DNA of 57,305 bases from a virus (taxonomy: Duplodnaviria > Caudoviricetes), in the IMG/VR virus record IMGVR_UViG_3300025120_000059, positions 1-57,305 of that record. One strand, written 5' to 3'. Shown one piece after another: positions 36,209-55,097 of the stretch. The notes beneath the pieces are model-generated. The model saw only the letters and a list, made by a program, of their open reading frames with translations. It made no database searches and was not told the DNA's origin. Position 1 is the first letter of the stretch; every line of letters begins with the position of its first letter. The position numbers and the translations under genes were made by a program.

Positions 36209-36497
36209 TAGCGTTCTCCGATGTTATAGTTTTAATAGCGAAGCTTCTTACTACTTTAGGTTCTAATCCAGCAAGCTCGCACGTTGCCTCAAAGTTTTCA
36301 CAGGTTACTCCAATAGAACAGAAGACCCATGCGCTTGCTTGATCACGATGCAGCACTGTCTCTAAACTTTCACTGGGTTCTTTAGGTTTGGATAAGTCTA
36401 ACAAAGCTTGAAGGATTATGGCAAGATGTAATGTCTTGTCTGAATCTTTCTCAGTTAGATCGTACAGTGTACCGAAGTCCGGTACTTCATTTGTCAT
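36174..36497 (-). CDS. Hypothetical protein
   Basis: 107 aa, AIILQALLD...A..W...F...CELAGLEP helical motif common in marine phages. Confidence 0.6.
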   Translation of the reverse strand: MTNEVPDFGTLYDLTEKDSDKTLHLAIILQALLDLSKPKEPSESLETVLHRDQASAWVFCSIGVTCENFEATCELAGLEPKVVRSFAIKTITSENANEIRRKINSFL

Positions 36498-40346: not shown

Positions 40347-40823
40347 TCAAGCAGCTTTTTTTTGTAATTGATTTTGATTTAATCCATACCCCTCACCATG
40401 TCCTAAATTAATTATATTATTTGGATTAATAAGTTGTTCTTTAGTTGCCCAACCTCTGATAACAAATTTAGGAAAGTTTGTGGTAACTAAAACAAAAATA
40501 TCAATATCTTTATAAGGTGTATTTAATTTTGCTAGTAGTTTTCCTGTAGAATATTTTGTTGTTTTAACATCTATTCTTTTTCCAGAGTGAGAAATGAGAT
40601 CAGCGCCGCCCTGTCTTGCATATATTGTTAAGTCAGGATATACATTAAGCCATTTACCCACGCAAAGTTCGCCACCTAAACCTAGAAGATCAGTTTCTAA
40701 ATTACTTTGTGGACCTATCTTTGCGTTATAAACTCCTGAAGAACGGGCTACATCGTGACGCATTTCAGCCCCTATCTTACAAATTTTTTGTTCAAATTCT
40801 GTAAGTTCATATTCATATATCAT
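40347..40823 (-). CDS. Putative PD-(D/E)XK-like nuclease
   Basis: GLGGE...GADL....IDVKTT; AT-rich. Confidence 0.5.
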   Translation of the reverse strand: MIYEYELTEFEQKICKIGAEMRHDVARSSGVYNAKIGPQSNLETDLLGLGGELCVGKWLNVYPDLTIYARQGGADLISHSGKRIDVKTTKYSTGKLLAKLNTPYKDIDIFVLVTTNFPKFVIRGWATKEQLINPNNIINLGHGEGYGLNQNQLQKKAA

Positions 40824-41286
40824 TTGTCATGTCCACTAAGTATGCATCTTCTACGGGAATGTGAAAGAATTTTTCTCCCTTTCTTATCTTATAGTTAGAG
40901 GCTTCTTTAACTTCACACTCTAACAATGTGTTACCATCTACGTGCCATGCCATAGTGCAGTCATGGTTGAAGACCACAAAAGTAAGTAGGTCATTGTAAC
41001 ATTCCTTCTTCCATTTGTCAAGAAGCCTTTGCTTACGATGTGGTATACGTAACTCTTTCCAACTGTCGGGCCACTCGTTACCCTTCCAAGAATACTTCAC
41101 CTCCACTTCATAGAGATGTCTTGGAAGGTCTGGACCTACAGTTGAAACAATATCAAAGTAAGTTGTTTCATTAGTATCTATATTAGTATGATCTTTATTT
41201 TCTAACCAAGATACCATAGCTTCTTTGGCTTCTCTGTCAGCTTTCTCATATAGATTACGATCAAACTTCTTTCTAACCTCACTCAT
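40813..41286 (-). CDS. Putative PD-(D/E)XK-like nuclease
   Basis: FDIVS...YEVEVK; likely start MSEVRKK. Confidence 0.5.
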   Translation of the reverse strand: MSEVRKKFDRNLYEKADREAKEAMVSWLENKDHTNIDTNETTYFDIVSTVGPDLPRHLYEVEVKYSWKGNEWPDSWKELRIPHRKQRLLDKWKKECYNDLLTFVVFNHDCTMAWHVDGNTLLECEVKEASNYKIRKGEKFFHIPVEDAYLVDMTNDI

Positions 41287-42901
41287 TGTCATCCTCCACA
41301 AAGGGGTTGTCGATCTGTGTCATGCGTCCTGTCTCACCATCATAGTGAAGGTGACAAGCTATACCAGTGTCACCTGTGTACCTGTTCTTCAAGACACGGA
41401 TAGAGGTGGTATTAGCTTCGATAGGATCGTCTGCCTGTTGGTTACGCTCCAGTGCAATCACTGCATCAGACAGGTGGGCAATAGAAGCAGAGCCACGTAG
41501 GTGTGACAGGGTAACTTCACGGCCATTCTCATGCCCATTGTCACCTGATGGGCGACGTAGGTGGCTGACCAGTAGCAGGGCAATGCCTGTCTCCTCAACA
41601 AGAGAACGAAGCTTGGTCATCAGGATGTCGATAGACTTACGCTCATCGCCGTTGTCTTCCTGTCCTGATACAAGGATAGACAGGTGATCAAGGAAAATCC
41701 ACTTGCAGTCAAGAGCTTTTGCCATGTATCGGATGCGACTAAGTATCTCATCGTTCTCCATGCTGCCAAAGTGATCGAAGGCAAAGAACCTACCAGAGTC
41801 AATCGTCTTGGCTTGCCAATCATCCAACTGTTCCTGCGTGTACTGGTCACGTATCTCCTTAATGTACAGTCTAGCGTTAGCTTCCACACTCATAAGGTTG
41901 AAGGCAGTCTGCTTCGTGTTCTCTTCCATAGCAAGCACACCAATATTATCTTTGGTATTCTGCATAATATGATACATAAGCTCACGCATGATGCTGGACT
42001 TACCCATACCTGCACCAGAGGTGAACGTCACAAGCTCTCCTGTCCTGATGCCATAGGTCTTGTCGTTCATACCGGACCACGGGTAGGGACAAGTCTCGTT
42101 GTGTGTCTCATCGTACAGGCTACGGCCAAGGTCAGCAAGGTTGATAATACCTGCCGGTGTAAAGGTACGTGCGCTCCACCATGCCTGAGTAAACTTCTCA
42201 CGTTGACCTGTCTTCAGATACTCATTGGCATCCTTGAGTTCAAGGTCCATGATCTTACACTTGTTAGGCTCAAACAGTTTAGCAACAGCCTGTGCTGCCT
42301 CCTTGCCCTGCTTATCATTGTCAAAGCAGAGAACAATAGTATCGAACTTGTTAAGGTATTCAAGTGACTGCTGACAGTTCTTCACGGCAGACTGTGCGCC
42401 GTTCTTAATAGATACTGAAGGCCACTTCGATCCCATCAGTTCATAGGCACTCATGGCATCGATCTCACCCTCACAAACCGTGACAAACTTACCTGTCTGA
42501 CCAAAGATATTCTGACCAAACAAACCACACTCAGAAAGATTACCCTCAGACCAGAACTGTTTGTCACTGGTACGTCGGAACTTAGATGCAAGATGATTAC
42601 CATTCTTGTCGTAGTATTTGTACATGTGTTTATCTACAATGGTGCCACTCTTACTTACAGTGACGCCATACTTCTTACAGGTATCAAGAGTAATTTTTCT
42701 GTCAGCAATAGCTGAGAAGGTAAAAGATGAGGGATTTTCATTCTGCATTTTGATAACCTGAGTTGGTTGGGTTGGCATCTGTTCTCCATTTCTATAGGGC
42801 TTGGATTCGTCGCAGCTAAAACATTTAGTTCCCCACTCGTAGTATGCCAGTGCGTCTGACGAACCACAGTCGGGGCAGGGTTGGTGTGTTTTAAGTTCCA
42901 T
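41279..42901 (-). CDS. T7 gp4-like primase-helicase
   Basis: CPDCGSSD zinc finger, CEGEIDA and FDND TOPRIM, GAGMGKS Walker A, LDHL, LRGS, VLKNR. Confidence 0.95.
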   Translation of the reverse strand: MELKTHQPCPDCGSSDALAYYEWGTKCFSCDESKPYRNGEQMPTQPTQVIKMQNENPSSFTFSAIADRKITLDTCKKYGVTVSKSGTIVDKHMYKYYDKNGNHLASKFRRTSDKQFWSEGNLSECGLFGQNIFGQTGKFVTVCEGEIDAMSAYELMGSKWPSVSIKNGAQSAVKNCQQSLEYLNKFDTIVLCFDNDKQGKEAAQAVAKLFEPNKCKIMDLELKDANEYLKTGQREKFTQAWWSARTFTPAGIINLADLGRSLYDETHNETCPYPWSGMNDKTYGIRTGELVTFTSGAGMGKSSIMRELMYHIMQNTKDNIGVLAMEENTKQTAFNLMSVEANARLYIKEIRDQYTQEQLDDWQAKTIDSGRFFAFDHFGSMENDEILSRIRYMAKALDCKWIFLDHLSILVSGQEDNGDERKSIDILMTKLRSLVEETGIALLLVSHLRRPSGDNGHENGREVTLSHLRGSASIAHLSDAVIALERNQQADDPIEANTTSIRVLKNRYTGDTGIACHLHYDGETGRMTQIDNPFVEDDNE

Positions 42902-42914
42902 AAACTTCTCCATA

Positions 42915-42966
42915 TTAATTGAGCCTTAGTAGTTTCGTAGAAACTCTACTACTAAGACTCAATTAA
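42915..42966 (-). repeat. Conserved hairpin element, copy A
   Basis: Minus strand TTAATTGAGTCTTAGTA-GTAGA-GTTTC-TAC-GAAAC-TACTAAGGCTCAATTAA. Confidence 0.85.
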
Positions 42967-42968
42967 GT

Positions 42969-43157
42969 TTACCATTTACCTTTACTGTTTTCCATGAGTT
43001 CCTTACATAACTCTTGTCGGTGTGCAGCTATATCCTTTTCTATTGATACCAGTGTCTCTATCTTATCAACCATCTCCATCTTACGCCACGGTGCTTTAAA
43101 ACATGTTTGTACATGTCCTCTTTCTTTTGGTTTGTATACTTCAACTAGAACTTCCAT
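42969..43157 (-). CDS. Hypothetical protein
   Basis: Likely start MEVLVEVY; the upstream part of the track ORF is better explained by another frame. Confidence 0.55.
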   Translation of the reverse strand: MEVLVEVYKPKERGHVQTCFKAPWRKMEMVDKIETLVSIEKDIAAHRQELCKELMENSKGKW

Positions 43158-43161
43158 AGCT

Positions 43162-43320
43162 CTATCCCTTCTTGATTTCATAAACTCTTTCTGTAGGTAA
43201 TCCGGTAACATGTTGAGTGAGTTGTTCACGGTTTTGAAGTTCTTCTTCTGCCTCCTTCTTAGTAGTGAAAGATTTAATCTCCACATCTCCCCACTCCTTT
43301 CTTAATACTAACTTCCACAT
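43162..43320 (-). CDS. 52-aa hypothetical protein (not in track)
   Basis: MWKLVLRKEWGDVEIKSFTTKKEAEEELQNR... Confidence 0.55.
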   Translation of the reverse strand: MWKLVLRKEWGDVEIKSFTTKKEAEEELQNREQLTQHVTGLPTERVYEIKKG

Positions 43321-43976
43321 AACGCACTCCATGATTCAGGAAATAACTTTTCCATATGATCTCCGATTGGTTTAACCACGCTACTGGTTTCAAGTTGTGC
43401 GTCTTTGCTGCACCGTAGTTTGTATATTCTTGCGAAGGCCATCAGTGTACCAGACCAGTACCACTCCGTCAACATGCTTTGTGGCAGCACAGTTCGTGCT
43501 TGTTCAGGACATACACCTATATCTAACATAGCTTTATAAGCATCAAGACAGTGGCGTGTTGCATCTATGTACATATGATCTACTATGTTCTGTGATGGTG
43601 TGGCATCTTCTGATGATCCCTGCTTTACATTTTCTGCACTCTGTCTCCAGTAATCAGGCGACCAGAACTCTGGTTCTGTTTTAATATACCTACGGCTAAC
43701 CTCATTCCAGACAAGACCAACTTGATGTTTCATAAGTTGTCGTGCTACGAAGATGGGTGCCTTGATCCTGAACTGTGCAGAGCCATGACCAAACGGTGTC
43801 CAGTGATTGTGCTTGGCAAGATACTTTATTAGTTTAATATCTTTATCTTGAAGCACTCCCTCAGTCGGACCACCAAAAGGTATTGTTTCCCAATCAGATT
43901 CTTTATCAAAGCTAACCCGTGCTGCATTAACAACGCTGAGATCGTTACCCATGTGATCAATCAATTCAACATTCAT
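43308..43976 (-). CDS. thyX: Flavin-dependent thymidylate synthase
   Basis: VVNAARVS, HWTPF, ARQLMKHQ....NEVSRRY, PEQARTVLP. Confidence 0.95.
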   Translation of the reverse strand: MNVELIDHMGNDLSVVNAARVSFDKESDWETIPFGGPTEGVLQDKDIKLIKYLAKHNHWTPFGHGSAQFRIKAPIFVARQLMKHQVGLVWNEVSRRYIKTEPEFWSPDYWRQSAENVKQGSSEDATPSQNIVDHMYIDATRHCLDAYKAMLDIGVCPEQARTVLPQSMLTEWYWSGTLMAFARIYKLRCSKDAQLETSSVVKPIGDHMEKLFPESWSALCGS

Positions 43977-44151
43977 CAAAGGTATCCTCCCACAGTTCAT
44001 GCACAAAAGAAACTTTATCTTCCATAATATTATCTGCTTCTTTCTTTGCTAACTTCTTAGCCTCTTTGTAGACATAACCTTCATCAACATATTCTCTGAT
44101 CAGATCACGCATTAAACCACTGCGTTCTTTCTGCCATAAATTCTTAGCCAT
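43966..44151 (-). CDS. Hypothetical protein
   Basis: 61 aa, tightly packed with neighbours. Confidence 0.6.
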   Translation of the reverse strand: MAKNLWQKERSGLMRDLIREYVDEGYVYKEAKKLAKKEADNIMEDKVSFVHELWEDTFDEC

Positions 44152-44152
44152 G

Positions 44153-44323
44153 TTAATCTAAATCCTCTAAGTCTTTAAAAAATTCTTCTCTATCTTTTTG
44201 ACTTGTGACATCGTACCCTGACTTCTTCATCAACAACCACAACTCTTCGCCGTATCCTAAAGATTTTCTTAAAGTATTTTCTTTTTCTAAACGGTGCCAA
44301 TCAAGATCGTATATTTTTGTCAT
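44153..44323 (-). CDS. 56-aa hypothetical protein (not in track)
   Basis: MTKIYDLDWHRLEKENTLRKSLGYGEELW... fills the gap. Confidence 0.55.
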   Translation of the reverse strand: MTKIYDLDWHRLEKENTLRKSLGYGEELWLLMKKSGYDVTSQKDREEFFKDLEDLD

Positions 44324-44486
44324 CGTATTCTACCCACCCAGTATTAGCGTTTGTTTGTTTTTCTTTTGCTAGTTCTTTTCTTAGGTCATCAATTAATTTT
44401 TCCTGTTCTTTTATTCTAGCTTTTAACATCTTAACATTAGTATTTAATATGTCCCAAGCGGACTTCAAGTTAGTGTCTTCTGTCAT
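44301..44486 (-). CDS. Coiled-coil hypothetical protein
   Basis: 61 aa, SD AGGAG. Confidence 0.6.
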   Translation of the reverse strand: MTEDTNLKSAWDILNTNVKMLKARIKEQEKLIDDLRKELAKEKQTNANTGWVEYDDKNIRS

Positions 44487-44498
44487 ATTATACTCCTG

Positions 44499-44990
44499 TC
44501 ACCGGCTGTTGTCAATATAAAATACATGTTTATCTATTTGCCCCACAAGAGAGAAGCGATCATCCAATGCCCAGTAAGGTGTGACATAAGAGGCATGATA
44601 GTGGGTTGCTCCTTCAGTGTGGAGTAGCACAACGCCCTGTAGAGCAAGCTCTGCTGCGCTGACTGCTTCATTATAAGCATCTACATTTGCAATAGTTTCT
44701 GGCTTCCCGTCACACCAGTATGAGAAGTGACACTTGTTTCTGACGGGCTTACCCTTCCATGTTCTGCCCTGACGGACAACATCACAGATATTATCTGGAT
44801 AATGTTCTGACTGCACTCGTTGCAATACCACGTTTGCTACAGCAAGTTGTGCAACAAAAGATTCTGAACGTGCTTCAAAGTATACTGCCTCTGCTAGACA
44901 TGAAAGGTTGTCTGCCCTTACCTGAGATGCAAAGACAGAAAGGATAATAAAGAATATAAAGTTAAGTATAATAATCTTTAAGTAGTTCAT
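44499..44990 (-). CDS. SleB-like cell wall hydrolase (Hydrolase_2) with signal peptide
   Basis: CLAEAVYFEARSE, VANVVLQR, CHFSYWCDG, GATHYHA, HVFY; hydrophobic N-terminus. Confidence 0.9.
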   Translation of the reverse strand: MNYLKIIILNFIFFIILSVFASQVRADNLSCLAEAVYFEARSESFVAQLAVANVVLQRVQSEHYPDNICDVVRQGRTWKGKPVRNKCHFSYWCDGKPETIANVDAYNEAVSAAELALQGVVLLHTEGATHYHASYVTPYWALDDRFSLVGQIDKHVFYIDNSR

Positions 44991-45184
44991 TGCAATCTTT
45001 CAATTTTTATATTAAAAGGAAATCCACCAGACAATTCTTTTATACCATGACACATAAGATATGCGGCGGCATCTTCATATGATGGAAAAGTATACACCTC
45101 TTCTTCATCTTCGTTTATCATTAAGTCAATGTCATCTACATCCTTAACTGTATCTTCTTGAGCTTGGGTTATTATATAACTCAT
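44987..45184 (-). CDS. Hypothetical acidic protein
   Basis: 65 aa, coupled to neighbours. Confidence 0.55.
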   Translation of the reverse strand: MSYIITQAQEDTVKDVDDIDLMINEDEEEVYTFPSYEDAAAYLMCHGIKELSGGFPFNIKIERLQ

Positions 45185-45324
45185 CGACCCTGCCCTCTAT
45201 ACTTTTTAAAGCTACGTCTCTTATGTTTATTGTTGGGACGGGAAAGAGTTCCCGCCCCGATTGATGTACGTTTCTTGATCCGATGTTGTGTTGGATCGTA
45301 CTTACCATCAGTCTTCTTTACCAT
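45181..45324 (-). CDS. 47-aa basic protein (not in track)
   Basis: MVKKTDGKYDPTQHRIKKRTSIGAGTLSRPNNKHKRRSFKKYRGQGR; TAATG and ATGA coupling. Confidence 0.65.
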   Translation of the reverse strand: MVKKTDGKYDPTQHRIKKRTSIGAGTLSRPNNKHKRRSFKKYRGQGR

Positions 45325-46220
45325 TAGACAACCTCCAATTCTTTCCAGTGTGGTGATGCCAACATCTTACGTACTTTATCTTCACGTAGTACACGGGTGT
45401 TAGCTTTAGGTACATGGGTAGACCATGCTGTAGCTGCCTGATAAGCAGTCCACAGTGTGCCTTTAGTCTGCTGACTATAGCCTTCGTAGTGACCACGGCC
45501 TATGATGTGACGGTTCTCTTCGTCAAAGGTTTTCATCAGGTTGGATAGCATCACCTTGTTAGGAACCTGTGCTTTGCTTACGTTGTCCATACGCTTTGCA
45601 AGTGTGTTACTGAACAGTGAGATCGCAGTGTCACGATCAACCGTTGTATTATACCACACTTTCATCTGATCCATACCATCGTTGGCAATGAAGTCAGATG
45701 CAGCCCTGATCTTACTGGCAAAGCTGGTGACAGAGAAGTTCTTTGAGTGGCGACCATACACATAGGCCAGCTTGTTACCATCAACAAGAGTATTGTAACA
45801 GGCTGATCGGAAGTAACCCATCATTCCATTGTTAGCCCATGTTCTGTTGTGGCTGGTACGAAACTTGAACTGAGGTGTAACCAAGTCATTCCTTCCATCA
45901 ATGGTAGTAGCTTCAGCGTTGAACTTAGCAGTAAGTTCTAGCTGTTCGCCATGTCCAATCACATTGGTTTGAAACTCAGCACCATCAAGATCAATACCCG
46001 ACATAGCGATAGACTGTTCAAGATTTTCTACAAGATCAAGATACTGTACTGGCTCGTAGGCTTCCGACACAATAGCAATAGGTTCTCCGCTATCAGTTCG
46101 ACGCAGACCTACGCCCAATGACGGATGAATCTCTCCTCCATCAACCCCACCAAAGTTAGGGTTGAACGCACCAAGAGAAAACTTTTCTACGTTAAAGTTA
46201 AGTACATCATGGTTAAACAT
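45324..46220 (-). CDS. DUF932-like protein
   Basis: RTDSGEPIAIVSEAYEPVQ, RSACYN, TLWTAYQAAT.W.TH motifs. Confidence 0.75.
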   Translation of the reverse strand: MFNHDVLNFNVEKFSLGAFNPNFGGVDGGEIHPSLGVGLRRTDSGEPIAIVSEAYEPVQYLDLVENLEQSIAMSGIDLDGAEFQTNVIGHGEQLELTAKFNAEATTIDGRNDLVTPQFKFRTSHNRTWANNGMMGYFRSACYNTLVDGNKLAYVYGRHSKNFSVTSFASKIRAASDFIANDGMDQMKVWYNTTVDRDTAISLFSNTLAKRMDNVSKAQVPNKVMLSNLMKTFDEENRHIIGRGHYEGYSQQTKGTLWTAYQAATAWSTHVPKANTRVLREDKVRKMLASPHWKELEVV

Positions 46221-46371
46221 TTTGGTTATCTTTCATCTTTAGGTTGAAACGTATTGAGTGTAGTTGCTGAATACATTGTGACATCTTGTCACTGTCTTCC
46301 AGTTTTACTGAGCCATTCAACTGAAGCTGGCTTAGTACTTCAAGAGTTTCTTCTATGGCTTCAAGCGGTGT
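46213..46371 (-). CDS. Hypothetical early protein
   Basis: Likely start at MTPLEAIEE within track ORF 46213..46422. Confidence 0.45.
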   Translation of the reverse strand, partial: TPLEAIEETLEVLSQLQLNGSVKLEDSDKMSQCIQQLHSIRFNLKMKDNQNV

Positions 46372-46579
46372 CATCGTTCCAGCTTTCGTAACCGTCTGAA
46401 AGGGAACGCATTTCGTGTTCAATCCATCCGTTTAGTTCTTGGATATTAATATCTTCTGGCTTTGAATCGTATGCAATTAGCTCCATGTATTCTTCTACCA
46501 TTGGGCGACACCACTCATCGCCACCATAACGCAGAAACTTTTCAACATCTTCGATGTCTTTAAACTCAGGAATATTCAT
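46361..46579 (-). CDS. Hypothetical acidic early protein
   Basis: 72 aa, SD GAGGAG. Confidence 0.6.
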   Translation of the reverse strand: MNIPEFKDIEDVEKFLRYGGDEWCRPMVEEYMELIAYDSKPEDINIQELNGWIEHEMRSLSDGYESWNDDTA

Positions 46580-46580
46580 G

Positions 46581-46802
46581 TCATTCTCCTCTAAGTTGTA
46601 TATCTTTTAGTGTGTACTCGGCTAGTATACCATTAAATGTATTAGAGATCAAGCACAATCCATTCAAAGCAGACGGTGCATTTGTCATGGTAAAAGTCAT
46701 AGCTGCCATCAGAGATTCCTCTGCAATGTTTAGATCGTCAGTGTCTTCTTCTTGTAGTAAACTAAGTTCATTATAAACTTGTTTAAATACTTTCATATTC
46801 AT
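46581..46802 (-). CDS. Hypothetical early protein
   Basis: 73 aa, SD GAGGAG. Confidence 0.6.
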   Translation of the reverse strand: MNMKVFKQVYNELSLLQEEDTDDLNIAEESLMAAMTFTMTNAPSALNGLCLISNTFNGILAEYTLKDIQLRGE

Positions 46803-46950
46803 ATGGTAACTCCTCTAGTATGTCATGCCATGCGTTCATTATCTTTATCCTTTGGTTTTGGTGGTGGCTTGCCGCCGAAATAAGTTTCTTGTATCCACTT
46901 ATAATGCTCTGGCGTATTAGGTTTAGGCGGCTTTTCTTTCTCTGGCATAC

Positions 46951-47133
46951 TCACTCCATGTCTACTGTGGGATCACCCCAGCTTACTTCTATGTTTTGTT
47001 TTAATTTAAACTGATTACATCCCTCGACATAAGCTTGATATTGTTTATCACAATCTTCTTTATTATACCACCACTTAGGCATTACACTGTAAGACAGTTG
47101 TTGAAGTTCGTCCCAATCTTTTTTAGATAACAT
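46951..47133 (-). CDS. Hypothetical early protein
   Basis: 60 aa, SD AAGGAG. Confidence 0.55.
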   Translation of the reverse strand: MLSKKDWDELQQLSYSVMPKWWYNKEDCDKQYQAYVEGCNQFKLKQNIEVSWGDPTVDME

Positions 47134-47338
47134 AGCTTTGCTCCTTCTTCAGCCATTCAAGTTGCACCATAGCTATATCATAAGCCTGTGCTGGTGTCAA
47201 ATCAGTAAGAGAATAGATGGTGTACTTTAGACCAGACTTCTCGCCTGTAGTCTTAATCTTTTTACGTAGGTTTGTGTCCCATGTAATCTTCCAGTTATCA
47301 CCACCAAGTTCTATCTCTACGAAGTCAACTGTCTTCAT
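47123..47338 (-). CDS. Hypothetical early protein
   Basis: Likely start MKTVDFVE with SD GGAGG. Confidence 0.55.
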   Translation of the reverse strand: MKTVDFVEIELGGDNWKITWDTNLRKKIKTTGEKSGLKYTIYSLTDLTPAQAYDIAMVQLEWLKKEQSYVI

Positions 47339-47525
47339 TTTGTACCTCCAATTCACTTTGTAAGTTGAATAATATTTCGTGCATTTCGTCAAACAATTTC
47401 TCTGATTTATCCCACTGCCCAATGCGAGCCATACTAAATGCGATCTCCATACCCATTCTTGCAAAAGAAAGTTTAGCAGATGTTGGTTTATCTTTAATGC
47501 TTTTTAATACATCGTCACGAGTCAT
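47325..47525 (-). CDS. Hypothetical early protein
   Basis: 66 aa, SD GGAGG. Confidence 0.55.
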   Translation of the reverse strand: MTRDDVLKSIKDKPTSAKLSFARMGMEIAFSMARIGQWDKSEKLFDEMHEILFNLQSELEVQNEDS

Positions 47526-47706
47526 ACTCTACCTCCATGTCAGGGACAAAGCCTTTGTCTGTGAATAAAGTTAGCTCAAAGTCTTGGTCAGTTTTATCAG
47601 TGACAGTTACCGTTATGGTTGTGAAGCTTTCGTAGTCTTCACGTTTCACTTTGATGTTGTCTACGCTATGTATTCTGAGTCCGTTCATTAGCTCATCTCC
47701 ATCCAT
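47515..47706 (-). CDS. Hypothetical early protein
   Basis: Beta-rich ~57-63 aa ORF. Confidence 0.55.
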   Translation of the reverse strand: MDGDELMNGLRIHSVDNIKVKREDYESFTTITVTVTDKTDQDFELTLFTDKGFVPDMEVEYDS

Positions 47707-47837
47707 TCTGATTCAGTTCTACGTGCAGCTTCTGCGTAGGTTTCATTGCAGCCTTTAGGCCACCCATCCAACTCCAGATACTCCACCCATAAGTCAAAGA
47801 TATTTTCTTTGAGCATTTCGTTTTCATGGTTACTCAT
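47688..47837 (-). CDS. 49-aa hypothetical protein (not in track)
   Basis: MSNHENEMLKENIFDLWVEYLEL..., SD GGAG. Confidence 0.55.
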   Translation of the reverse strand: MSNHENEMLKENIFDLWVEYLELDGWPKGCNETYAEAARRTESEWMEMS

Positions 47838-47872
47838 TTCAATCTCCAAAAAACGTCTTAGTAATGGTATAA

Positions 47873-47926
47873 TTAATAGTCGTTATGTAGTATCGTAAGA
47901 TACTTCTACTACATAACTCCTATTAA
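47873..47926 (-). repeat. Conserved hairpin element, copy B
   Basis: Minus strand TTAATAG-GA-GTTATGTA-GTAGAA-GTATC-TTAC-GATAC-TACATAAC-GA-CTATTAA. Confidence 0.85.
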
Positions 47927-47927
47927 G

Positions 47928-48596
47928 TCAAGCGGCAATCGCTGATGCCTTCTTCTTACTTGTACCATGTGCAGGAAAGCCTACCACTACATTCCTATCC
48001 CACTTCTCACATAGCATACATGATGCACATGATACTTCATCTTTGTATGTTGCGGGACATACCACAACCTTTCTACCTTTAGGTGTAACAGTGTTAGTTG
48101 TCTGATCAATCGGCAACACAGTTGCAACTGGAGCTATGTTAAGATCGCATAGCTTGTCAGCATGTTCAAGATTGTTGGCAGACACATTAACAGTAAAGCC
48201 TAAGTGGTTCATAATGTTGACAGTTATGGCATTCTGGAAGTTGTCCAGTACGTCATAGTGTGTGTATGTAAACCCACGCTTGCCCTTATTAGCTTTGGCA
48301 AGCTCAATACACTTCTCATTGTCCAGCTTCTCCATGTCACCGGGCAAGTCGCCAGCTTGATTGTGCCGCCACTTGCTACCAGTGGGCAAATCTTTGATCT
48401 TGTCAATGAACGTAGCCCAATCGTCGCCACGTTCTTTCCGGGTGACTTTGTCCCAATGTAGTTTCAATGGGCCACTGTCGGCATAGCAGCCATTCGATTT
48501 GAAGGGACACGAAGTGGGACATGTTGTCGCAGTGCTAGTAGTGACTGCCATCTTTCCCACTTTGACGTTCTTTGATTTAGGCGTAATGTGAAACAT
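47928..48596 (-). CDS. Cys-rich conserved phage protein (DUF7227-like, possible Fe-S binding)
   Basis: N.KVG, TCPTSCPF...CYA, WRHNQAGD, FTYTH, VCPA, CASCMLC, F.AHG motifs. Confidence 0.65.
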   Translation of the reverse strand: MFHITPKSKNVKVGKMAVTTSTATTCPTSCPFKSNGCYADSGPLKLHWDKVTRKERGDDWATFIDKIKDLPTGSKWRHNQAGDLPGDMEKLDNEKCIELAKANKGKRGFTYTHYDVLDNFQNAITVNIMNHLGFTVNVSANNLEHADKLCDLNIAPVATVLPIDQTTNTVTPKGRKVVVCPATYKDEVSCASCMLCEKWDRNVVVGFPAHGTSKKKASAIAA

Positions 48597-48805
48597 TTAT
48601 TTCCTCCAAAAAATCCTCAGTTTCAAAGTAACACACATCGGCGTCGGTAGTAAAGGCATTTTTATTTTTAATGCCTTCCGCAATCCGTCCATTGAGTTCG
48701 GTGCGTTGTTCGACGGTCAGTTCCTCAACATAGTTGATAGTCATAGATTTTTACCATAGTTTGCACATAAGATAGGAACCTCTGACATTCCTATCTCTGT
48801 ATAAA

Positions 48806-49081
48806 CTAAGCCGCTTCGGATACCAACTGTGCTATGGCCCTTGAGGTATTTTCTCCAGATTTTAGCACTTTGATAAGCTGCCGTGCAATGACACGCTGAT
48901 GGTCACGCATCCGGCCACCGTCTACCGACTTGCGATGCCGTGCCAGCTTTGCTACAGCCTTGTCAAACCTACCCCAGTTACCAATGGTAACATTTTCTTC
49001 AATAAGCTTTTCCAGCTTGGGATCGGCATAGAGGTTATACTTACCACGGCGTTCGGTGTACTGAATTGCAGGAGTTGTCAT
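48806..49081 (-). CDS. Hypothetical early protein
   Basis: 91 aa, flanked by hairpins. Confidence 0.6.
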   Translation of the reverse strand: MTTPAIQYTERRGKYNLYADPKLEKLIEENVTIGNWGRFDKAVAKLARHRKSVDGGRMRDHQRVIARQLIKVLKSGENTSRAIAQLVSEAA

Positions 49082-49160
49082 AGTATATATCTTTCTATTT
49101 AGGTTAGGAATAATGCAAGGCTTATCGTGAGGTGCCTTGCTAACCTCTGTTAAGCTACGC

Positions 49161-49451
49161 TTATGCCATTGTCATATCGACAAATTCAGCGGCATCTTCT
49201 TTGATAGCTTTAGCTATGATATTATTAGACCGTTTGTGAGCAGCTTCCAGCTTTTCTTCTACAGCCTTCGGCTTAGTGCTGGTAATTGCTTCAGCTTCGG
49301 GCAGCTTGTCACCATTGCGGATGACTTTGAAGTTCCCGTTCGGGTGTACAACCCTAATAGGAGTGCCGGAGTCGGCAGCTTTGCTGAACAAGTCTTTGCC
49401 TTTATCAAGTGCTACCCACTTGTCAGCTACGAAAGTTTCCATTGTTGCCAT
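49161..49451 (-). CDS. Hypothetical early protein
   Basis: 96 aa, SD GGAG, downstream of hairpin copy C. Confidence 0.65.
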   Translation of the reverse strand: MATMETFVADKWVALDKGKDLFSKAADSGTPIRVVHPNGNFKVIRNGDKLPEAEAITSTKPKAVEEKLEAAHKRSNNIIAKAIKEDAAEFVDMTMA

Positions 49452-49487
49452 GATATATCTCCAATCAGTTGGCGGTTTCTACTGTAT

Positions 49488-49540
49488 CTAATTGATCCTT
49501 TACAGTATCGTAAGATACTCTACTGTAAAGTATCTATTAG
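49488..49540 (-). repeat. Conserved hairpin element, copy C
   Basis: Minus strand CTAATAGAT-A-CTTTACA-GTAGA-GTATC-TTAC-GATAC-TGTAAAG-G-ATCAATTAG. Confidence 0.85.
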
Positions 49541-49541
49541 G

Positions 49542-49706
49542 TTAGTCGCATCCCTCTGTCAAGAACGCACACAATGCTATAAATGCGAATGGCAATGCAA
49601 AGAGGATTGGGAAAGTGTCCCAACCTCTAAAGCAAAACCCATACATTCCGACAAGAACTGCCGGAAACATCAACAGCAAAGCTGTGTTTCTAATTTTCTC
49701 AAACAT
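49542..49706 (-). CDS. Small two-TM membrane protein
   Basis: Likely start MFEKIRN; two hydrophobic segments. Confidence 0.5.
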   Translation of the reverse strand: MFEKIRNTALLLMFPAVLVGMYGFCFRGWDTFPILFALPFAFIALCAFLTEGCD

Positions 49707-49707
49707 A

Positions 49708-49878
49708 TTAGTCCCCATTTCTCTGTCTGAAGATGCGATCTTTGAGCTTGCTTGCATGAATCTGAAATTGTTCTTCCTCTTGGAAGAATGAACATATTGT
49801 CAGATGGTCTTGATCCTGATTTACAGGGTGATTTTGCAACTCAACCAAGTTATACTTGTCAAGCATTTCATTTAACAT
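49708..49878 (-). CDS. Hypothetical early protein
   Basis: Start MLNEMLD after SD GGAG; contains HPVNQDQDHLTI. Confidence 0.55.
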   Translation of the reverse strand: MLNEMLDKYNLVELQNHPVNQDQDHLTICSFFQEEEQFQIHASKLKDRIFRQRNGD

Positions 49879-49882
49879 ATTA

Positions 49883-50180
49883 ATCTCCAATTAAAGATTT
49901 ATAATTGTTTCAAGCGTAGCTTCGTCTTCATCCATTATATTTATCCATTTCTGTTGTATTCTTTACAATTTCAGCAAGATCAATAATATCCTTGGCTGTA
50001 TATACAAAAGCCCAATCTTCTCCAAGAAGATCATCGGCTATTTCATTGGCAACAAAAATATCACCGCAATTACCCAATGGGTGACATACCCCCAAGTAAC
50101 AAAAAGCATAGTAGCTATCCATTAGCTCATCTCCGATTAAAGATTTATAATTGTTTCAAGCGTAGCTTCGTCCTCATCCA
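49883..50180. repeat. 52-bp direct repeat (49883-49934 and 50129-50180) flanking one gene
   Basis: atctcc(a/g)attaaagatttataattgtttcaagcgtagcttcgtc(t/c)tcatcca, 2 mismatches. Confidence 0.95.
49928..50122 (-). CDS. Hypothetical early protein between direct repeats
   Basis: 64 aa, SD GGAG supplied by the upstream repeat copy. Confidence 0.6.
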   Translation of the reverse strand: MDSYYAFCYLGVCHPLGNCGDIFVANEIADDLLGEDWAFVYTAKDIIDLAEIVKNTTEMDKYNG

Positions 50181-50308
50181 GTGTGGCAATCCACCAACCA
50201 TGTTGGTCATGCAGGTCAATGGCTCCGCCATTCACAGATGTGTGAACTCGGAAAGCTCCATCAAGATGCTGGTCAATCTCCGATTGTAGGAATGAAATGT
50301 TCGACATG
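50138..50308 (-). CDS. First early gene, ~56 aa (not in track)
   Basis: SD GGAG; MSNISFLQSEIDQHLDGAFRVH...LDEDEATLETIINL. Confidence 0.55.
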
Positions 50309-50346
50309 GTAATCTCCGATTAGGTTGGTTGGTTGGGTTATAATAT

Positions 50347-50399
50347 CTAATTAACCCTCTATAGTATCGTAAGATACTCTACTATAGAGGTTTAATTAG
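50347..50399 (-). repeat. Conserved hairpin element, copy D
   Basis: Minus strand CTAATTAA-A-CCTCTATA-GTAGA-GTATC-TTAC-GATAC-TATAGAGG-G-TTAATTAG. Confidence 0.85.
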
Positions 50400-50402
50400 G
50401 TT

Positions 50403-50432
50403 AATCTAGCTTATCGTCATTCGGTTTGTCAA
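50403..50432 (-). promoter_or_regulatory. Leftward early sigma70-type promoter
   Basis: TTGACA-N18-TAGATT; a second TTGACA at 50511-50516 has only a weak -10. Confidence 0.6.
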
Positions 50433-50882
50433 CCCTCATCAACCACTATTGTGGTTCATCGTAGGCATGACAGACCTGCATTGGTTGCATAGCAACTAAA
50501 AGCTACGCTTTGTCAAGGGGTTAGCTAGTTTTCTGTTGGTTACTACGAAGTAGTAGAAGCTGACTACAAGACATCCTTTGGATGAATTTGCCAAGACTAC
50601 TACCAATTACTCTCCTCCGTAGTAACATTCTGTTCCTACTACGGAGAGATAATTGGGTTCCCATAGCAAAGGCTTTGTTGGCAGCATAGCTGCTATGCGG
50701 GGGGGTGGAAAAAAAACCTGCACATGTATATATATATAAACAACCACTCTCATATACAGACAAAAATCTACGGACTACTCATCAAAATAAAAATAAGGTA
50801 TCCATACTGTGACATAAATACAACAAAGCGGTACTAATTAGTTCCTTATTAGTATTATTTTATTATTTTATTAGTATCTCTA

Positions 50883-50911
50883 TTGTATATCTCTATAGTA
50901 TAGTGTATAAT
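50883..50911 (+). promoter_or_regulatory. Rightward promoter for terL
   Basis: TTGTAT-N17-TATAAT, 6 nt before ATG 50918. Confidence 0.6.
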
Positions 50912-50917
50912 AGTACT

Positions 50918-52459
50918 ATGGAGTATTTAGATAGTAACTATATAGAACAGTATGTCAACCTTGAAGCTTTGTTAAAGCAGAATGTTGATACTCAATGTAA
51001 TGATGACTTCTTGTCTTTTGTAAGACTGATGGCACCTTCGATTGTGTCTGACTTCAGGATGGGTCGTCACATTGAAGTTATCTCAGATAAGCTACAACAG
51101 GTACAGGATGGTCAAATAAAAAGACTGATGGTCTTTCTTCCACCACGTTCATCAAAGTCTGTTGTCTGTTCCAAGTTGTTTCCTGCATGGTATCTGGGCA
51201 GGAACCCTGAACATGAGATACTAAGTATATCGCACAGTGACCAACTGGCAAGTGACTTTGGCAGATCAGTCAGGGACATAGTAAACACTGAGGAATACCA
51301 GAAAGTATTCAGGGGTGTCTCCCTTAGAAGTGATGTCAGGGCTGCTGGTAAGTGGAAGACAAACCATAATGGTACATACTATGCTGCCGGTGTCAGATCA
51401 CAGATTGCTGGACGTGGCGCACATGTAGCTATACTTGATGATGCTATGTCTGAAGAAGATGCGATCTCCAGTGCAGGTAGAAGGTTTATTAAAGAGTGGT
51501 ATCCTGCGGGACTCAGAACACGTATCATGCCAGACGGTGCCATTGTCATAATCAATACAAGGTATCACTATGATGATCTCTGTGGCTGGCTACTGAAGCA
51601 GCAGGAGAATATGTCTGACTATGAAACTATACCGTGGGAGGTTGTTAAGATACCTGCATGGTTAGATGAAGAAGCAGCAGAGATGCTTGATCTTCCAGTA
51701 GGAGGTAGCTACTTTCCTGAATGGAAGTCTGACAGGATACTCAGGATGGATGAGAGTGAGATCAAGGCAAGTAACGGAAGCCGGTACTGGAACTCTCTTT
51801 ACATGCAAGACCCCACACCTGAAGAGGGTGGTCTTATAAAGAAAAGGTGGATACAGGATTGGGATCAGGAAGACCCACCCAACTGTGAATTTGTAATACA
51901 AACTCTTGATACTGCCTTCTCCACCAGTACCACCGCTGACTACAGTGTCATACAAACATGGGGTATATTCTACATGTATGACCAAGATGAGAACGGCAGG
52001 GAGGACTTTGCAGCCCACCTGATACTTCTTGGTAACATCAAGGGCCGCTTTGAATATCCAGAACTTCGACGGCTGGCGCAGAAATTATACAATGAACATA
52101 GACCTGATGTCTGCATGGTGGAGAAGAAGGCATCCGGTCAATCGCTTATACAGGATATGCGACGGGCGGGACTCCCGGTAATGGAATATAATCCTGACAG
52201 GGATAAGGTATCCAGAGTTTACGCAGCCAGCCCCATCATGGAAGCAGGTCGCCTGTGGATACCTAAGAGTAAGAAGTGGGCAGATGATCTCATTGAAGAA
52301 CTTATACGGTTTCCCAATGCAGCCCATGATGACCAAGTGGATGCCCTGACAATGGCAGTACACTACATGAAGGAATCATGGCACCTCTCGCATCCCGAAG
52401 ACCCTGAAGAAGAAGAGGACAGGGTAAGCAAGGGCAGAGCAACATACTGGAATGTCTAA
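50918..52459 (+). CDS. terL: Terminase large subunit
   Basis: PPRSSKS Walker A, AILDD Walker B, TRYHYDDL, LDTA and HDDQVDA nuclease motifs. Confidence 0.95.
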   Translation: MEYLDSNYIEQYVNLEALLKQNVDTQCNDDFLSFVRLMAPSIVSDFRMGRHIEVISDKLQQVQDGQIKRLMVFLPPRSSKSVVCSKLFPAWYLGRNPEHEILSISHSDQLASDFGRSVRDIVNTEEYQKVFRGVSLRSDVRAAGKWKTNHNGTYYAAGVRSQIAGRGAHVAILDDAMSEEDAISSAGRRFIKEWYPAGLRTRIMPDGAIVIINTRYHYDDLCGWLLKQQENMSDYETIPWEVVKIPAWLDEEAAEMLDLPVGGSYFPEWKSDRILRMDESEIKASNGSRYWNSLYMQDPTPEEGGLIKKRWIQDWDQEDPPNCEFVIQTLDTAFSTSTTADYSVIQTWGIFYMYDQDENGREDFAAHLILLGNIKGRFEYPELRRLAQKLYNEHRPDVCMVEKKASGQSLIQDMRRAGLPVMEYNPDRDKVSRVYAASPIMEAGRLWIPKSKKWADDLIEELIRFPNAAHDDQVDALTMAVHYMKESWHLSHPEDPEEEEDRVSKGRATYWNV

Positions 52460-52550: not shown

Positions 52551-55097
52551 ATGGCTACTGAAAGAAATCCATACGATATGATGCCAGAAGAGGTTGGCGA
52601 TGTTGTTGCTATGCCTATGGAAGAAGAGTCCAATGCTACCTTTGAGGTTGATCCTGAAGACGGTGGTGTTATTGTTGACTTCTCTGAACAGGTTGTGGGG
52701 ATGGAAGCATCAGAAGATATTGCCGAATGGTTCGGTGATATGTCTGAACTTCTTGAAGAAGATGAACTGAATGATATTGCCAATGATGTTATTGAAAGCT
52801 ATCAATCAGATAAAGATTCCCGTGCTGAATGGGAGTCCATGTTTGAGAGTGGCTTTGATCTTCTTGGGCTTAAACTAGAACAGGGTTCAGAACCCTTTGA
52901 GGGTGCATGTACTGCTGTACATCCTCTCCTGATTGAATCGGCAGTCAAGTTCCAATCCAAAGCTTCCGGTGAACTATTCCCATCAAGCGGTCCTGTCAAG
53001 GCACAGATACTTGGCAAGTCAAACGCAGAAAAAGAATTACAGGCCAACAGAGTTCAGAACTTTATGAACTATCAGGTAACGGAGCAGATGCCCGAATACT
53101 TTGATGAGTTTGAAAGAATGCTGTTCCATCTCCCGATCATTGGATCAGCATTTAAAAAGTTGTACTATGACGCAACAACCAAGCGTCCCCGCTCTGAGTT
53201 TATTCCTATTGATCAGTTCTATGTATCATACTATGCAACTGATCTTGCCAACGCTGATCGTTATACACATGTAATCTATCGTAGTCCTGTTGAAATAGCA
53301 CGGGATATTAATGCTGGTGTTTATCAGGATGTTGATCTTCCCACACCATCATCTAATAATATTACAACCTTTGCAGAGAAGATGGATACAATCATTGGGT
53401 TGTCTCCCTCCTCTGATAATGATCCTCAGTATGTCTTGCTGGAACAGCACTGCTATCTTGATATTGAAGGAGAAGAGATTCCTCTTCCATACATTGTTAC
53501 TGTTGAGAGTCAATCTAGACAGATACTAAGTATTCGTAGAAACTATAACCAAGATGATCCAAACAAAGAAAAAATAGGACACTTTGTTCATTACAGGTTT
53601 GTACCGGGTTTTGGTTTTTACGGTCTTGGTCTTATACACTTCCTTGGTAATTTGACTATGAGTGCTACTGCGGCAATGCGTTCGCTGATAGATGCAGGGC
53701 AGTTTGCAAATCTACCGGGAGGGTTTAAGGCTAAAGGAGTAAGGATGGTTGGTGACAACGAACCTATTGCTCCCGGCGAGTTCAAAGAGGTTGAAGCAAC
53801 TGGTATAGACTTATCAAAGGCTATTGTTCCCCTCCCCTATAAAGAGCCTTCCTCTACTCTATTCCAGATGTTGAATTTCGTAGCTACTGCTGGACAGAAG
53901 TTTGCGGACAGCACGGAGCAGGTTATCTCCGATGCTGCCTCTTATGGACCCGTTGGAACTACTATGGCTTTGCTGGAAGCAAGCAGCAAGTTTTTCTCAG
54001 CAATACATAAACGGCTTCACAAGTCCCAGAAAGATGAGTTTAGAATCCTTGCTCGTATTGACTATGAATATCTTCCAGAAGAATATCCTTATGATGTTCC
54101 ATATGAAGATCGTAGTATTTTTAAACAGGACTTTGACGGTCGTGTAGATATTATCCCAGTATCTGATCCTAACATTCCATCCAATGCACATCGTATGATG
54201 ATGGCAAACATGGCACTACAGATGGCGCAGCAGTCTCCTCCCGGTATGTTTAATCTGGAAGAACTTAACAGGACAATCCTTAATGCTGCCAACATGCCTA
54301 ATGTTGATCAGATACTCCCACCCAAGATTGAACCTAAACCGCTTGATCCTGTATCAGATATTATGGCTGCTACTAAGGGTGTGCCTATTGCTGCATTTCC
54401 CGGCCAGAACCATGATGCACATATCCAGATTAAGATGGCATATCTTGAAGACCCCATGAACGGTAAGAATCCAATCATGCAGCGCATTGCTCCAATACTT
54501 CAGGCTAACATTCAAGAACATTCTATTATGAAGTATCAGGAACAGATGAATGGTATGACTGACCAGATGATGCAGGGAGTTAGCCCTGAAGAAGCTCAGA
54601 ACCCTGCCGTTGTTGAGATGGTCATGGCACAGGCTGCACAACAAATCCTTAATGCTAATCAGGCAATGGGTCAGGCGCAGTCTCCTGAACAACAGCTTGT
54701 ATCTCTGGAACAGGCCAAGGTTGAACTTGAGAAACAGAAACTACAGTCTGATACTATGGTTCAGGCAGCAGAGATGGAACTCAAGACCAAGAAACTTAAA
54801 CTTGAAGAAGCTGACCAGATCATTGATCTTCTCAAGACTAATGCTGCTAACAGTATGAAAGAAGAAAAATCAGAACTTGATCGTGAAGCTAAAGAGCGTC
54901 TTAAAGAACTAGACATTGAAGGCAAGCTTGATCTTGAAGATTTTAAAGTAACAGCAGCAAATGAAAGAGAAGTTGCCCAAACAATTAAAGATATGTTAGA
55001 GGCAAGAATGAAAGATGATAAAGATATGGAAGATAAAGCTCTTGAAGCTTTAACACAATTAGCAGTAATGCAAAAGGAGAATAATTATGATGACTAA
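52551..55097 (+). CDS. Portal protein with long C-terminal coiled coil
   Basis: 848 aa after terL; PFEGAC..HPLL.ES, GSAFKK.YYD, GFGFYGLGL, PYKEPS, PVGTTMAL motifs. Confidence 0.9.
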   Translation: MATERNPYDMMPEEVGDVVAMPMEEESNATFEVDPEDGGVIVDFSEQVVGMEASEDIAEWFGDMSELLEEDELNDIANDVIESYQSDKDSRAEWESMFESGFDLLGLKLEQGSEPFEGACTAVHPLLIESAVKFQSKASGELFPSSGPVKAQILGKSNAEKELQANRVQNFMNYQVTEQMPEYFDEFERMLFHLPIIGSAFKKLYYDATTKRPRSEFIPIDQFYVSYYATDLANADRYTHVIYRSPVEIARDINAGVYQDVDLPTPSSNNITTFAEKMDTIIGLSPSSDNDPQYVLLEQHCYLDIEGEEIPLPYIVTVESQSRQILSIRRNYNQDDPNKEKIGHFVHYRFVPGFGFYGLGLIHFLGNLTMSATAAMRSLIDAGQFANLPGGFKAKGVRMVGDNEPIAPGEFKEVEATGIDLSKAIVPLPYKEPSSTLFQMLNFVATAGQKFADSTEQVISDAASYGPVGTTMALLEASSKFFSAIHKRLHKSQKDEFRILARIDYEYLPEEYPYDVPYEDRSIFKQDFDGRVDIIPVSDPNIPSNAHRMMMANMALQMAQQSPPGMFNLEELNRTILNAANMPNVDQILPPKIEPKPLDPVSDIMAATKGVPIAAFPGQNHDAHIQIKMAYLEDPMNGKNPIMQRIAPILQANIQEHSIMKYQEQMNGMTDQMMQGVSPEEAQNPAVVEMVMAQAAQQILNANQAMGQAQSPEQQLVSLEQAKVELEKQKLQSDTMVQAAEMELKTKKLKLEEADQIIDLLKTNAANSMKEEKSELDREAKERLKELDIEGKLDLEDFKVTAANEREVAQTIKDMLEARMKDDKDMEDKALEALTQLAVMQKENNYDD

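Follow-up and report, generated by a model that had tools for sequence, protein, structure and literature searches.

Covarying, strand-specific hairpins of an early operon in uncultured marine podophages

The stretch of DNA analysed here—from this point on called the window—is a whole virus genome of the IMG/VR collection (record IMGVR_UViG_3300025120_000059; 57,305 bases, completeness estimate 97%), and the elements in question are five hairpins, E1-E5, found at gene junctions and in the leader of its early operon. The plus strand carries the structural and packaging genes, including those for tail proteins and internal-core-like proteins, and the minus strand a 21-kb early/replication arm running from 50307 down to 29191. 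The hairpins, given with their scores from a covariance model (R1) whose structure comprises the lower stem only, are as follows:

42915-42966, minus strand: hairpin E1, 2 nucleotides (nt) after the stop codon of the open reading frame (ORF) 42969-43286 and before the primase-helicase gene 41279-42913; 58.0 bits, E 7.7e-11
47873-47926, minus strand: hairpin E2, 1 nt after the stop codon of the DUF7227 gene 47928-48596; 64.6 bits
49488-49540, minus strand: hairpin E3, 1 nt after the stop codon of ORF 49542-49757 and upstream of ORF 49161-49451; 72.3 bits
50347-50399, minus strand: hairpin E4, at the predicted start of the early transcript and upstream of the first early ORF 50137-50307; 82.5 bits
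50596-50663, minus strand: hairpin E5, a divergent copy in the non-coding leader; 20.8 bits, E 0.056

The first four of them had been described in an original prediction made from the letters alone, and both their positions and sequences and the distances of 1-2 nt from the upstream stop codon in three copies (2, 1 and 1 nt) proved correct. Applied to the whole window, the model scores exactly four copies as strong (58-82.5 bits, E 8e-11 to 1e-16), E5 being the only further match under E 1; the family, put at four members before, has five here. An inverted-repeat scan of the whole window (arms of at least 14 nt, at most 30 nt apart) yields seven pairs, four of which are E4, E3, E1 and E2 (I1, I3, I5 and I6 of the scan), with arms of 25, 25, 19 and 20 nt and a complementarity of 88, 84, 95 and 90%, respectively, and E1-E4 include the longest and best-matched short-loop inverted repeats of the window and, within the early arm, are the best ones. 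Folded as sense-strand RNA, E1-E4 reach -26.0, -22.8, -21.1 and -26.1 kcal/mol (z-scores -6.4, -4.8, -4.6 and -5.9), an equal fold being attained by none of 200 shuffles of each. The apical core is a 19-mer, GTAGAGTATCTTACGATAC, which is exact in E3 (49505-49523) and E4 (50364-50382), the chance expectation being 0.01 and two matches occurring in 0/100 shuffles; the core of E2 carries one extra A (GTAGAAGTATCTTACGATAC), and that of E1 is the variant GTAGAGTTTCTACGAAAC (GTTTC..TAC..GAAAC). Hairpin E5 has a CCAATTA/TAATTGG base, a 10-bp stem CTCCGTAGTA/TACTACGGAG ending in GTAGTA/TACTAC, a small apical stem and a differing apex, GGAACAGAATGT.

Stable hairpins (-21 to -26 kcal/mol) standing directly after stop codons could be attenuators or pause sites for the host polymerase that work without a U tract and lower the read-through into downstream early segments, and passages of one report on the PeSL cassettes of T4-type phages state that the stem-loop part of one PeSL lowered the output of a reporter to much the same extent as a strong terminator does (PMC2839356). 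However, as had been predicted, no U tract or T run follows E1-E4, and the terminator-like scan lists none of the four sites, so that the G+C-rich stem followed by a U tract that marks an intrinsic terminator is not what they present; E4, moreover, sits right where the transcript begins, so that termination there would be pointless. An attenuator is thus very unlikely.

Concerning the distribution outside the window, the exact 19-mer is found in 61 stretches of IMG/VR contigs (61 loci, 536,041 bases, identified below by L-numbers), often two to four times in each, which makes 99 exact instances and 69 distinct flanks if the window with its duplicates is included. With E <= 0.001, model R1 has 169 matches in these loci, the best 150 of which represent 104 distinct sequences, including 41 without the exact 19-mer. 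Five near-complete relatives (55-60 kb, three of them with terminal repeats) contain 4, 2, 5, 5 and 6 matches, and all these 22 matches lie on one strand per genome, clustered within 1.3 to 13.4 kb; the copies are confined to the early arm. Orthologues of E1 occur in L014, L027 and L030, and E4 is kept together with the whole leader in seven relatives. At the position of E5 in the leader alignment, L047 has a copy with the canonical core and L046 and L052 have copies of the GTAGTAACGAAGTGTTAC type, a third apical type; E5 is counted as a family member because it shares the plan and because of that canonical copy at the same position in L047.

A blastn search of 50,697 GenBank phage records with one element returned two chance partial matches only (E 2 and E 6), Pelagibacter phage HTVC115P is free of such hairpins over its first 20 kb, and the 19-mer has no match in 185,579 bacterial and archaeal species, each represented by one genome. 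In Rfam 15 no family reaches its gathering threshold, the best local match being RF02592 with 24.1 bits against a threshold of 47, and in the Rfam scan of the window a tRNA alone passes. No description of the hairpin family was found in open-access papers and preprints, to which the literature search was directed. The original prediction had not recognised the elements as a described family, and the absence from Rfam agrees with this. Based on the above results, the early-operon hairpins are a real, widespread, undescribed and strand-specific family of a group of uncultured marine podophages.

Read 5' to 3' on the coding strand, an element consists of a stop codon (TAA or TGA), 1-2 bases, an AU-rich base, a junction, eight pairs of free sequence typically ending in T-A, the apex and the 3' arm, the last stopping a few bases before a Shine-Dalgarno sequence. 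The base consensus CTAATTAA pairs with TTAATTAG, and its TAATTA sequence is conserved on both arms. At the junction between base and stem, the 104 copies have an A.G mismatch in 40 cases, a Watson-Crick pair in 45 and G.U in 12, and the five pairs adjoining the core are Watson-Crick in all 104. The predicted shape is a quasi-continuous helix of ~22-25 base pairs with the AU-rich base CUAAUUAA/UUAAUUAG.

The pairing was assessed in an alignment of 64 copies—the four of the window and 60 of the 63 distinct copies from the loci, three near-identical orthologues of E4 being left out—in which the arm length is near-constant, gaps being present in only two columns. All 17 lower-stem pairs change on both sides, these counts coming from related sequences and not from independent events. 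The share of paired cells is 89.8% versus 68.4 +/- 0.7 in shuffles, with 0/500 reaching the observed value, and it falls to 31-44% when the partners are slid by 1-3 columns. One lower-stem pair occurs as A-U 23 times, C-G 16 times, G-C 13 times and U-A 12 times, with no unpaired cell. Double changes are seen even between close orthologues, for instance CCTCTATA/TATAGAGG in E4 of the window versus CCTCTTTA/TAAAGAGG in L039, where the flanks are otherwise near-identical. The prediction that the outer stems differ in sequence yet keep pairing, i.e. that the elements covary as a true family, is upheld by these results together with the model scan.

The coding-strand placement, likewise predicted, holds well beyond the window, since the purine-rich strand, in this genome the coding one, holds 137 of the 146 distinct contexts. 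The stop codon and the stem are a median of 2 nt apart, and the next start follows the stem at a median of 23 nt (interquartile 15-40, n=109). Called ORFs are overlapped by more than 15 nt in 29/146 contexts, mostly by opposite-strand or tiny frames such as the doubtful 49137-49730 (plus strand), and these cases are treated as noise of the ORF caller rather than as coding copies. A role in recoding was considered and rejected: a ribosome passing the stop codon ahead of the hairpin would come upon a further stop in the same frame only a few codons on.

The mismatches are one-sided, too. Among the stem mismatch cells, G.U or U.G accounts for 33 and A.C or C.A for 6 (binomial p about 1e-5, not corrected for relatedness); counted by distinct stems, the figures are 25 and 6, with five of the six A.C at the outermost pair. 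There are 50 A.G cells as opposed to 7 G.A and 6 C.U. On the opposite strand, the mismatches of the sense strand would turn into A.C and C.U, and the apical G.A into U.C. From the one-sided G.U and A.G mismatches it follows that the sense strand is the folded one, RNA being its simplest carrier. Such mismatches had been said to favour an RNA structure on the minus strand; the asymmetry extends to the whole family, but as a proof of RNA it falls short.

The apex can be drawn in two ways owing to its internal repeat GTA-GA-GTA. Register A, that of the original prediction, has a GUAGA bulge, a GUAUC/GAUAC stem and a UUAC loop; in register B, with the apex read as GUA-GA-GUA-UCU-UAC-GA-UAC, GUA/UAC continues the helix, followed by a tandem G.A/G.A loop and a second GUA/UAC that closes a UCU loop. 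Register B is given by RNAfold for E2-E4 (E1 being B-like with a 3x3 internal loop), by RNAalifold on the alignment, and by constrained folding, in which it has the lower energy in 24/24 apical variants. The variants themselves are divided. The E1 type (GTTTC..GAAAC) is a compensated change in register A and breaks two pairs in register B, the loop variants TTGC, TTTC, TAC and TTAAC are neutral in register A, and an inner stem of at least 4 pairs in that register is possible in 18/24 variants. On the other side, GTAGATTACTTAAGATAC and GTAGAACATAGTGATAC keep register B through compensated apical pairs and make register A impossible, and the one-sided deletion GTTC..GATAC retains register B. The bulged apex as predicted thus stands as one possible fold of two, whereas the claim that it is the fold does not, the symmetric helix with the tandem G.A being preferred thermodynamically in these calculations. 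A kink-turn (a 3-nt bulge followed by tandem sheared G.A) was rejected, as the register with the G.A pairs lacks the bulge and that with the bulge lacks the G.A pairs.

The setting in which such hairpins would act is that of a phage remote from the cultured ones. Its other landmarks are:

50903-52459, plus strand: large terminase
52551-55097, plus strand: portal
41279-42913, minus strand: T7-type primase-helicase, in the early/replication arm
38715-40346, minus strand: family A DNA polymerase, in the early/replication arm

The same arm encodes ThyX, ribonucleotide reductase, a cell-wall hydrolase and proteins with DUF932 and DUF7227. The closest cultured phages, with primase-helicase identities below 50%, are Pelagibacter phage HTVC115P (48%), Aeromonas phages 1233 and MQM1 and Vibrio phage CHOED, and a megablast search with 10 kb of the window matched none of its cultured relatives. 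Phage CHOED encodes a T7-type RNA polymerase. In the window no such enzyme was found: a PF00940 search was empty, the same search matching no control genome either, and tblastn of the window with the CHOED polymerase frames gave a best E of 0.2. The window genes have clear GGAG-type ribosome sites. Given these sites, the TTGACA-type boxes of the leader and the phage RNA polymerase not being found, early transcription by a proteobacterial-type host polymerase is the natural assumption. Neither an RNase III domain nor a double-stranded-RNA-binding domain was found among the phage proteins, control genomes being matched in both searches.

Several further features of the replication arm deserve mention. 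A tRNA-Arg with the anticodon TCT lies at 33968-34044 (minus strand), and a free-standing SegE-type GIY-YIG endonuclease with NUMOD3 motifs, likely a homing endonuclease, is encoded at 36487-37206 (minus strand). In a 794-aa protein (30765-33149, minus strand), an MptE-like (6-hydroxymethylpterin diphosphokinase-like) domain occurs alongside a methyltransferase-like region, and a second, weak methyltransferase match comes next at 30080-30775 (minus strand), so that the gene pair 30080-33149 may represent a module for nucleic-acid or glycan modification. At the far end of the arm (29191-30086, minus strand) a small terminase subunit (Terminase_2) and a holin with three transmembrane segments are encoded, the small subunit being set apart from the large terminase at 50903 on the plus strand. 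The 158-aa ORF 40347-40823, which adjoins the DNA polymerase gene, has no Pfam family; contigs of all four RNA libraries searched join 40342 to 40820, i.e. there is a common relative without this ORF. It should be noted that these libraries consist of short contigs of relatives at 90-99% identity, in which gaps of cover carry no meaning.

Between the two divergent arms there is a non-coding leader of ~600 nt (50308-50902, minus strand), with a DNA identity of 71-96% in seven relatives and several TTGACA boxes. It contains at least two small hairpins with compensated stem changes (ATGC..GCAT, CCAC..GTGG and TCAC..GTGA; CAGTCTT..AAGACTG and CAGTGTT..AACACTG) and five GTAGTA words clustered at 50546-50642; as a dispersed motif GTAGTA was rejected, since with 28 occurrences on the plus and 19 on the minus strand of the window it is unenriched outside the leader's five. 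Two promoter-like sites touch the hairpins directly:

50403-50432, minus strand: predicted sigma-70-like early promoter TTGACA-18-TAGATT, 10/12 matches, ending 3 nt before E4
49534-49562, minus strand: weak promoter-like TTGACA-17-TAATAG, its second hexamer (3/6) being the E3 base; unlisted in the promoter scan

The first of them is conserved in the leader alignment with the relatives, and its predicted start falls inside the 5' base of the E4 stem, in line with the claim that the fourth copy sits at the start site of the early promoter. In L007, L043, L046 and L052, a 12-nt alignment gap sets TTGACA 17 nt before the hexamer of the hairpin base, so that the base would take the -10 position; in L007, for which alone the spacing was counted out, that hexamer is TAATTT. 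A transcript of this gapped layout would, by its predicted start, begin at the foot of the upper stem, and in both layouts the RNA would begin with the hairpin, with little or no 5' overhang. Stabilisers of 5' ends are built in just this way, as a terminal hairpin with little or no 5' overhang.

These arrangements raise the question of whether the hairpin is itself a promoter, either extruded from the DNA as for the virion polymerase of phage N4, or a component of sigma-70 promoters. Phage-specific promoters are, like the hairpin motif, conserved, strand-specific, intergenic and ~20 nt long; E3 and the four gapped leaders have TTGACA 17 nt before the base hexamer, and over all contexts a -35-like hexamer is present 15-19 nt before the stem base in 24/120. 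The remaining 96 contexts, E1 and E2 among the copies without it, have no -35 at the right distance, and with a hexamer in just 24/120 the elements as a class are not promoters. No phage RNA polymerase was found by the searches given above, and the large virion proteins resemble, by gene order and size, T7-type internal core or ejection proteins; the phage-encoded virion polymerase of the N4 type is therefore not seen here, a polymerase of an unfamiliar kind being possible. Taken together, a promoter function has hardly any credibility. The 3' half of the hairpin was also tried as the seat of a promoter and rejected, no -35/-10 pair fitting there in the alignment read by eye. Elsewhere in the arm, a perfect sigma-70 consensus, TTGACA-17-TATAAT (12/12), lies at 44487-44515 (minus strand), at the end of the cell-wall hydrolase gene, and a near-perfect site with a TG extension at 40993-41021 (minus strand); both may be internal or middle promoters.

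The reading we favour, while giving it somewhat less than an even chance, is that the hairpins are marks for RNA processing or stability, analogous but not homologous to the early RNase III sites of phage T7. We infer that they act as RNA and are cut. The early mRNA would be a product of the host RNA polymerase, the hairpins would fold in this sense-strand, polycistronic transcript and punctuate it, and their lower stem would be cut by an endonuclease specific for double strands, most probably the RNase III of the host; alternatively, the hairpin might merely block exonucleases. Either way, gene segments would end or begin with a protective hairpin and thereby acquire different stabilities, and the promoter copy E4 would provide the primary transcript with a 5'-terminal hairpin. 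With neither an RNase III nor a double-stranded-RNA-binding domain in the phage, it is a host enzyme that would have to act.

Several properties of the elements are consistent with such a role. As described in passages of one account of the E. coli enzyme (PMC1540722), RNase III substrates are typically two helical turns long, a length that coaxial stacking can help to supply, and internal loops or bulges confine the cut to one bond, on one strand only, leaving 3' hairpins protective against exonucleases; a helix of about two turns and internal loops are named there as reactivity epitopes. The predicted helix of the family, with about 22-25 pairs, has this length. It is interrupted by the junction A.G in 40/104 copies, and all canonical copies have either the tandem G.A loop or the 5-nt bulge. 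The sites lie in the intergenic gaps of an early operon presumed to be transcribed by the host. Folding of the five T7 early intergenic regions gave hairpins of ~45-60 nt with a shared upper stem AAGGUC..GGCCUU, followed by UAUGAU, and differing lower stems, one of these hairpins standing between the A promoters and gene 0.3; we take the five to be the RNase III sites R0.3, R0.5, R1, R1.1 and R1.3. The parallel with T7 early stems drawn originally is therefore a good one as to layout, a conserved upper stem over variable lower stems, whereas in sequence the T7 upper stems share nothing with the 19-nt core.

There are, however, points that weigh against processing. The antisense strands of E1-E4 fold only slightly more weakly (-20.7, -18.1, -23.0 and -25.1 kcal/mol), and G.T and G.A are also the most stable mismatches of DNA, so that a sense-strand DNA hairpin is compatible with the mismatch data. 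The 19-nt core is letter-exact in 63 of the 104 distinct copies, though the leader DNA is only 71-96% identical, and such conservation, exceeding the known generic need of RNase III, points to a sequence-specific partner. A close relative does without hairpin E1, and the likeness among copies is greater inside a contig than across contigs.

The exact core leads to the idea that the hairpin is an operator RNA, read at its apex and base, a fixed distance apart, by a sequence-specific early phage protein or a host factor, and serving the control of translation, antitermination or decay in the manner of lambda N-boxB or of a coat protein and its operator. The 8-bp stem adjoining the core is free to vary, the arm length is near-constant, TAATTA is conserved on both arms of the base, and the stem stops just before the Shine-Dalgarno sequence, with the median of 23 nt to the start codon; all this would suit such a reader. 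A candidate protein is missing, however: 20 early ORFs compared with PHROGs hit families of unknown function only, 30 proteins compared with Pfam have no RNA-binding domain, and the three translated early proteins are small and look acidic by eye. Moreover, several apical types occur in one contig (e.g. the canonical, TTGC and GTTC..GAAC in L022), and their coexistence is a poor fit to one strict reader; five sites along an operon are also unlike the nut and put systems. We consider an operator unlikely.

A more far-reaching version, to which we attach an equally low probability, is a private RNA regulon in which the apex is the operator for a sequence-specific protein of the early phage or the host and the element also copies itself between gene junctions. 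The apex would slip between the tandem G.A helix and a 5-bp stem bearing the GUAGA bulge, the protein would gauge the fixed helix length down to the conserved AU-rich base, and a single 53-nt unit would carry both regulation and cassette shuffling. Through the invariant apex and the fixed helix length, a dedicated binding partner keeps a real, if minor, chance.

The copying at the DNA level has evidence of its own. Stem identity is 0.61 within a contig versus 0.48 between contigs, and that of the upper stem 0.61 versus 0.50, values that 0/1000 label permutations reach; L016, L055 and L012 have three or four nearly identical stems each, the window lineage four different ones. This likeness within contigs indicates duplication or gene conversion at the DNA level, and a component of recombination or duplication is likely. 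Positions 42913-42964, almost exactly E1, are replaced by 12 other bases in a relative of at least 90% identity (contigs of the RNA-library runs X4 and X6), which weakens the earlier proposal that E1 sets the dose of primase-helicase. One more copy stands in L014 immediately behind the first early gene, a junction that has no hairpin in the window, and in four relatives homology is lost within ~5-45 nt of the 3' end of E2, to be found again beyond 220-700 extra bases. The small ORF 49928-50122 is enclosed by the two copies of a ~50-nt direct repeat (50128-50178 and 49887-49937, minus strand). The repeat takes in the final part of the first early gene with its stop codon, as well as the ribosome site that comes next, and looks like a scar of cassette insertion; at that site L014 has a hairpin and a different ORF.

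It could accordingly be held that the hairpin is mainly a short palindromic DNA repeat, spread by duplication and used as a crossover point for small early-gene cassettes, much like the PeSLs or a miniature inverted-repeat element, any effect as RNA being secondary. Apart from the likeness within contigs, the presence/absence polymorphism and the breaks near E2, it may be added that copies are only 178-315 nt apart in some contigs, e.g. L055, and that the PeSL cassettes of T4-type phages, intergenic stem-loops with promoter motifs, recombine and excise ORFs according to two reports (PMC2839356, PMC4122927). Yet strict coding-strand orientation and strand-asymmetric mismatches are unexpected of a symmetric recombination site, and most of the recurrent homology breakpoints of the window's early arm are away from the hairpins. 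The flanks of E1-E4 show no target-site duplication, no transposase candidate turned up among ~60 scanned phage proteins, and the species genomes contain no copy; the gap from the stem to the next gene, moreover, is too short for a promoter, unlike in PeSLs. A mainly DNA-level role is hence rather improbable. Duplication and gene conversion are taken as the origin and homogenisation of the copies, but they do not fully explain the conservation of structure, strand and apex.

Almost nothing is known of how early genes are timed and dosed in abundant uncultured marine podophages without an RNA polymerase of their own. The hairpin family offers a handle on this, being compact, strongly covarying, easily synthesised and present in at least 61 viral contig stretches, and it would make a clean new entry in Rfam. 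Should the cutting model be true, a T7-style punctuation of mRNA arose independently in an unrelated sequence form; should it be false, the invariant apex implies an unfamiliar specific partner.

With regard to known systems, the Correia, ERIC and REP-type palindromes are likewise short, transcribed, multi-copy inverted repeats that can be RNA hairpins or nuclease targets; they are, however, chromosomal and far more numerous, and the chromosomal copies, target duplication and cognate transposase of REP or MITE elements have no counterpart here, the 19-mer being absent from the 185,579 species genomes. The PeSLs share with the present family the repeated intergenic stem-loops by small early ORFs of unknown function, the cassette indels alongside and the likeness of copies within a genome. 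They are ~100 bp long with a sigma-70 promoter after the stem-loop, whereas the conserved part of the window hairpins is the apex and not a promoter, for which the median of 23 nt (interquartile 15-40) between stem and start leaves no room. The N4 hairpin promoters, lambda nut and HK022 put are similar in being small conserved hairpins just after early promoters with a specific partner; in the window no virion polymerase was found, the five copies are spread over 8 kb rather than one per promoter, and the helix is much longer. As to the T7 early sites, these differ in the apical motif and in belonging to a phage with its own RNA polymerase, none having been found in the window, and the window helix is more regular with a conserved AU-rich base. 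What the two have in common is a set of five intergenic hairpins of ~50 nt in a host-transcribed early operon, one of them between the promoters and the first gene, with a common apical sequence, differing lower stems, internal loops and no U tract.

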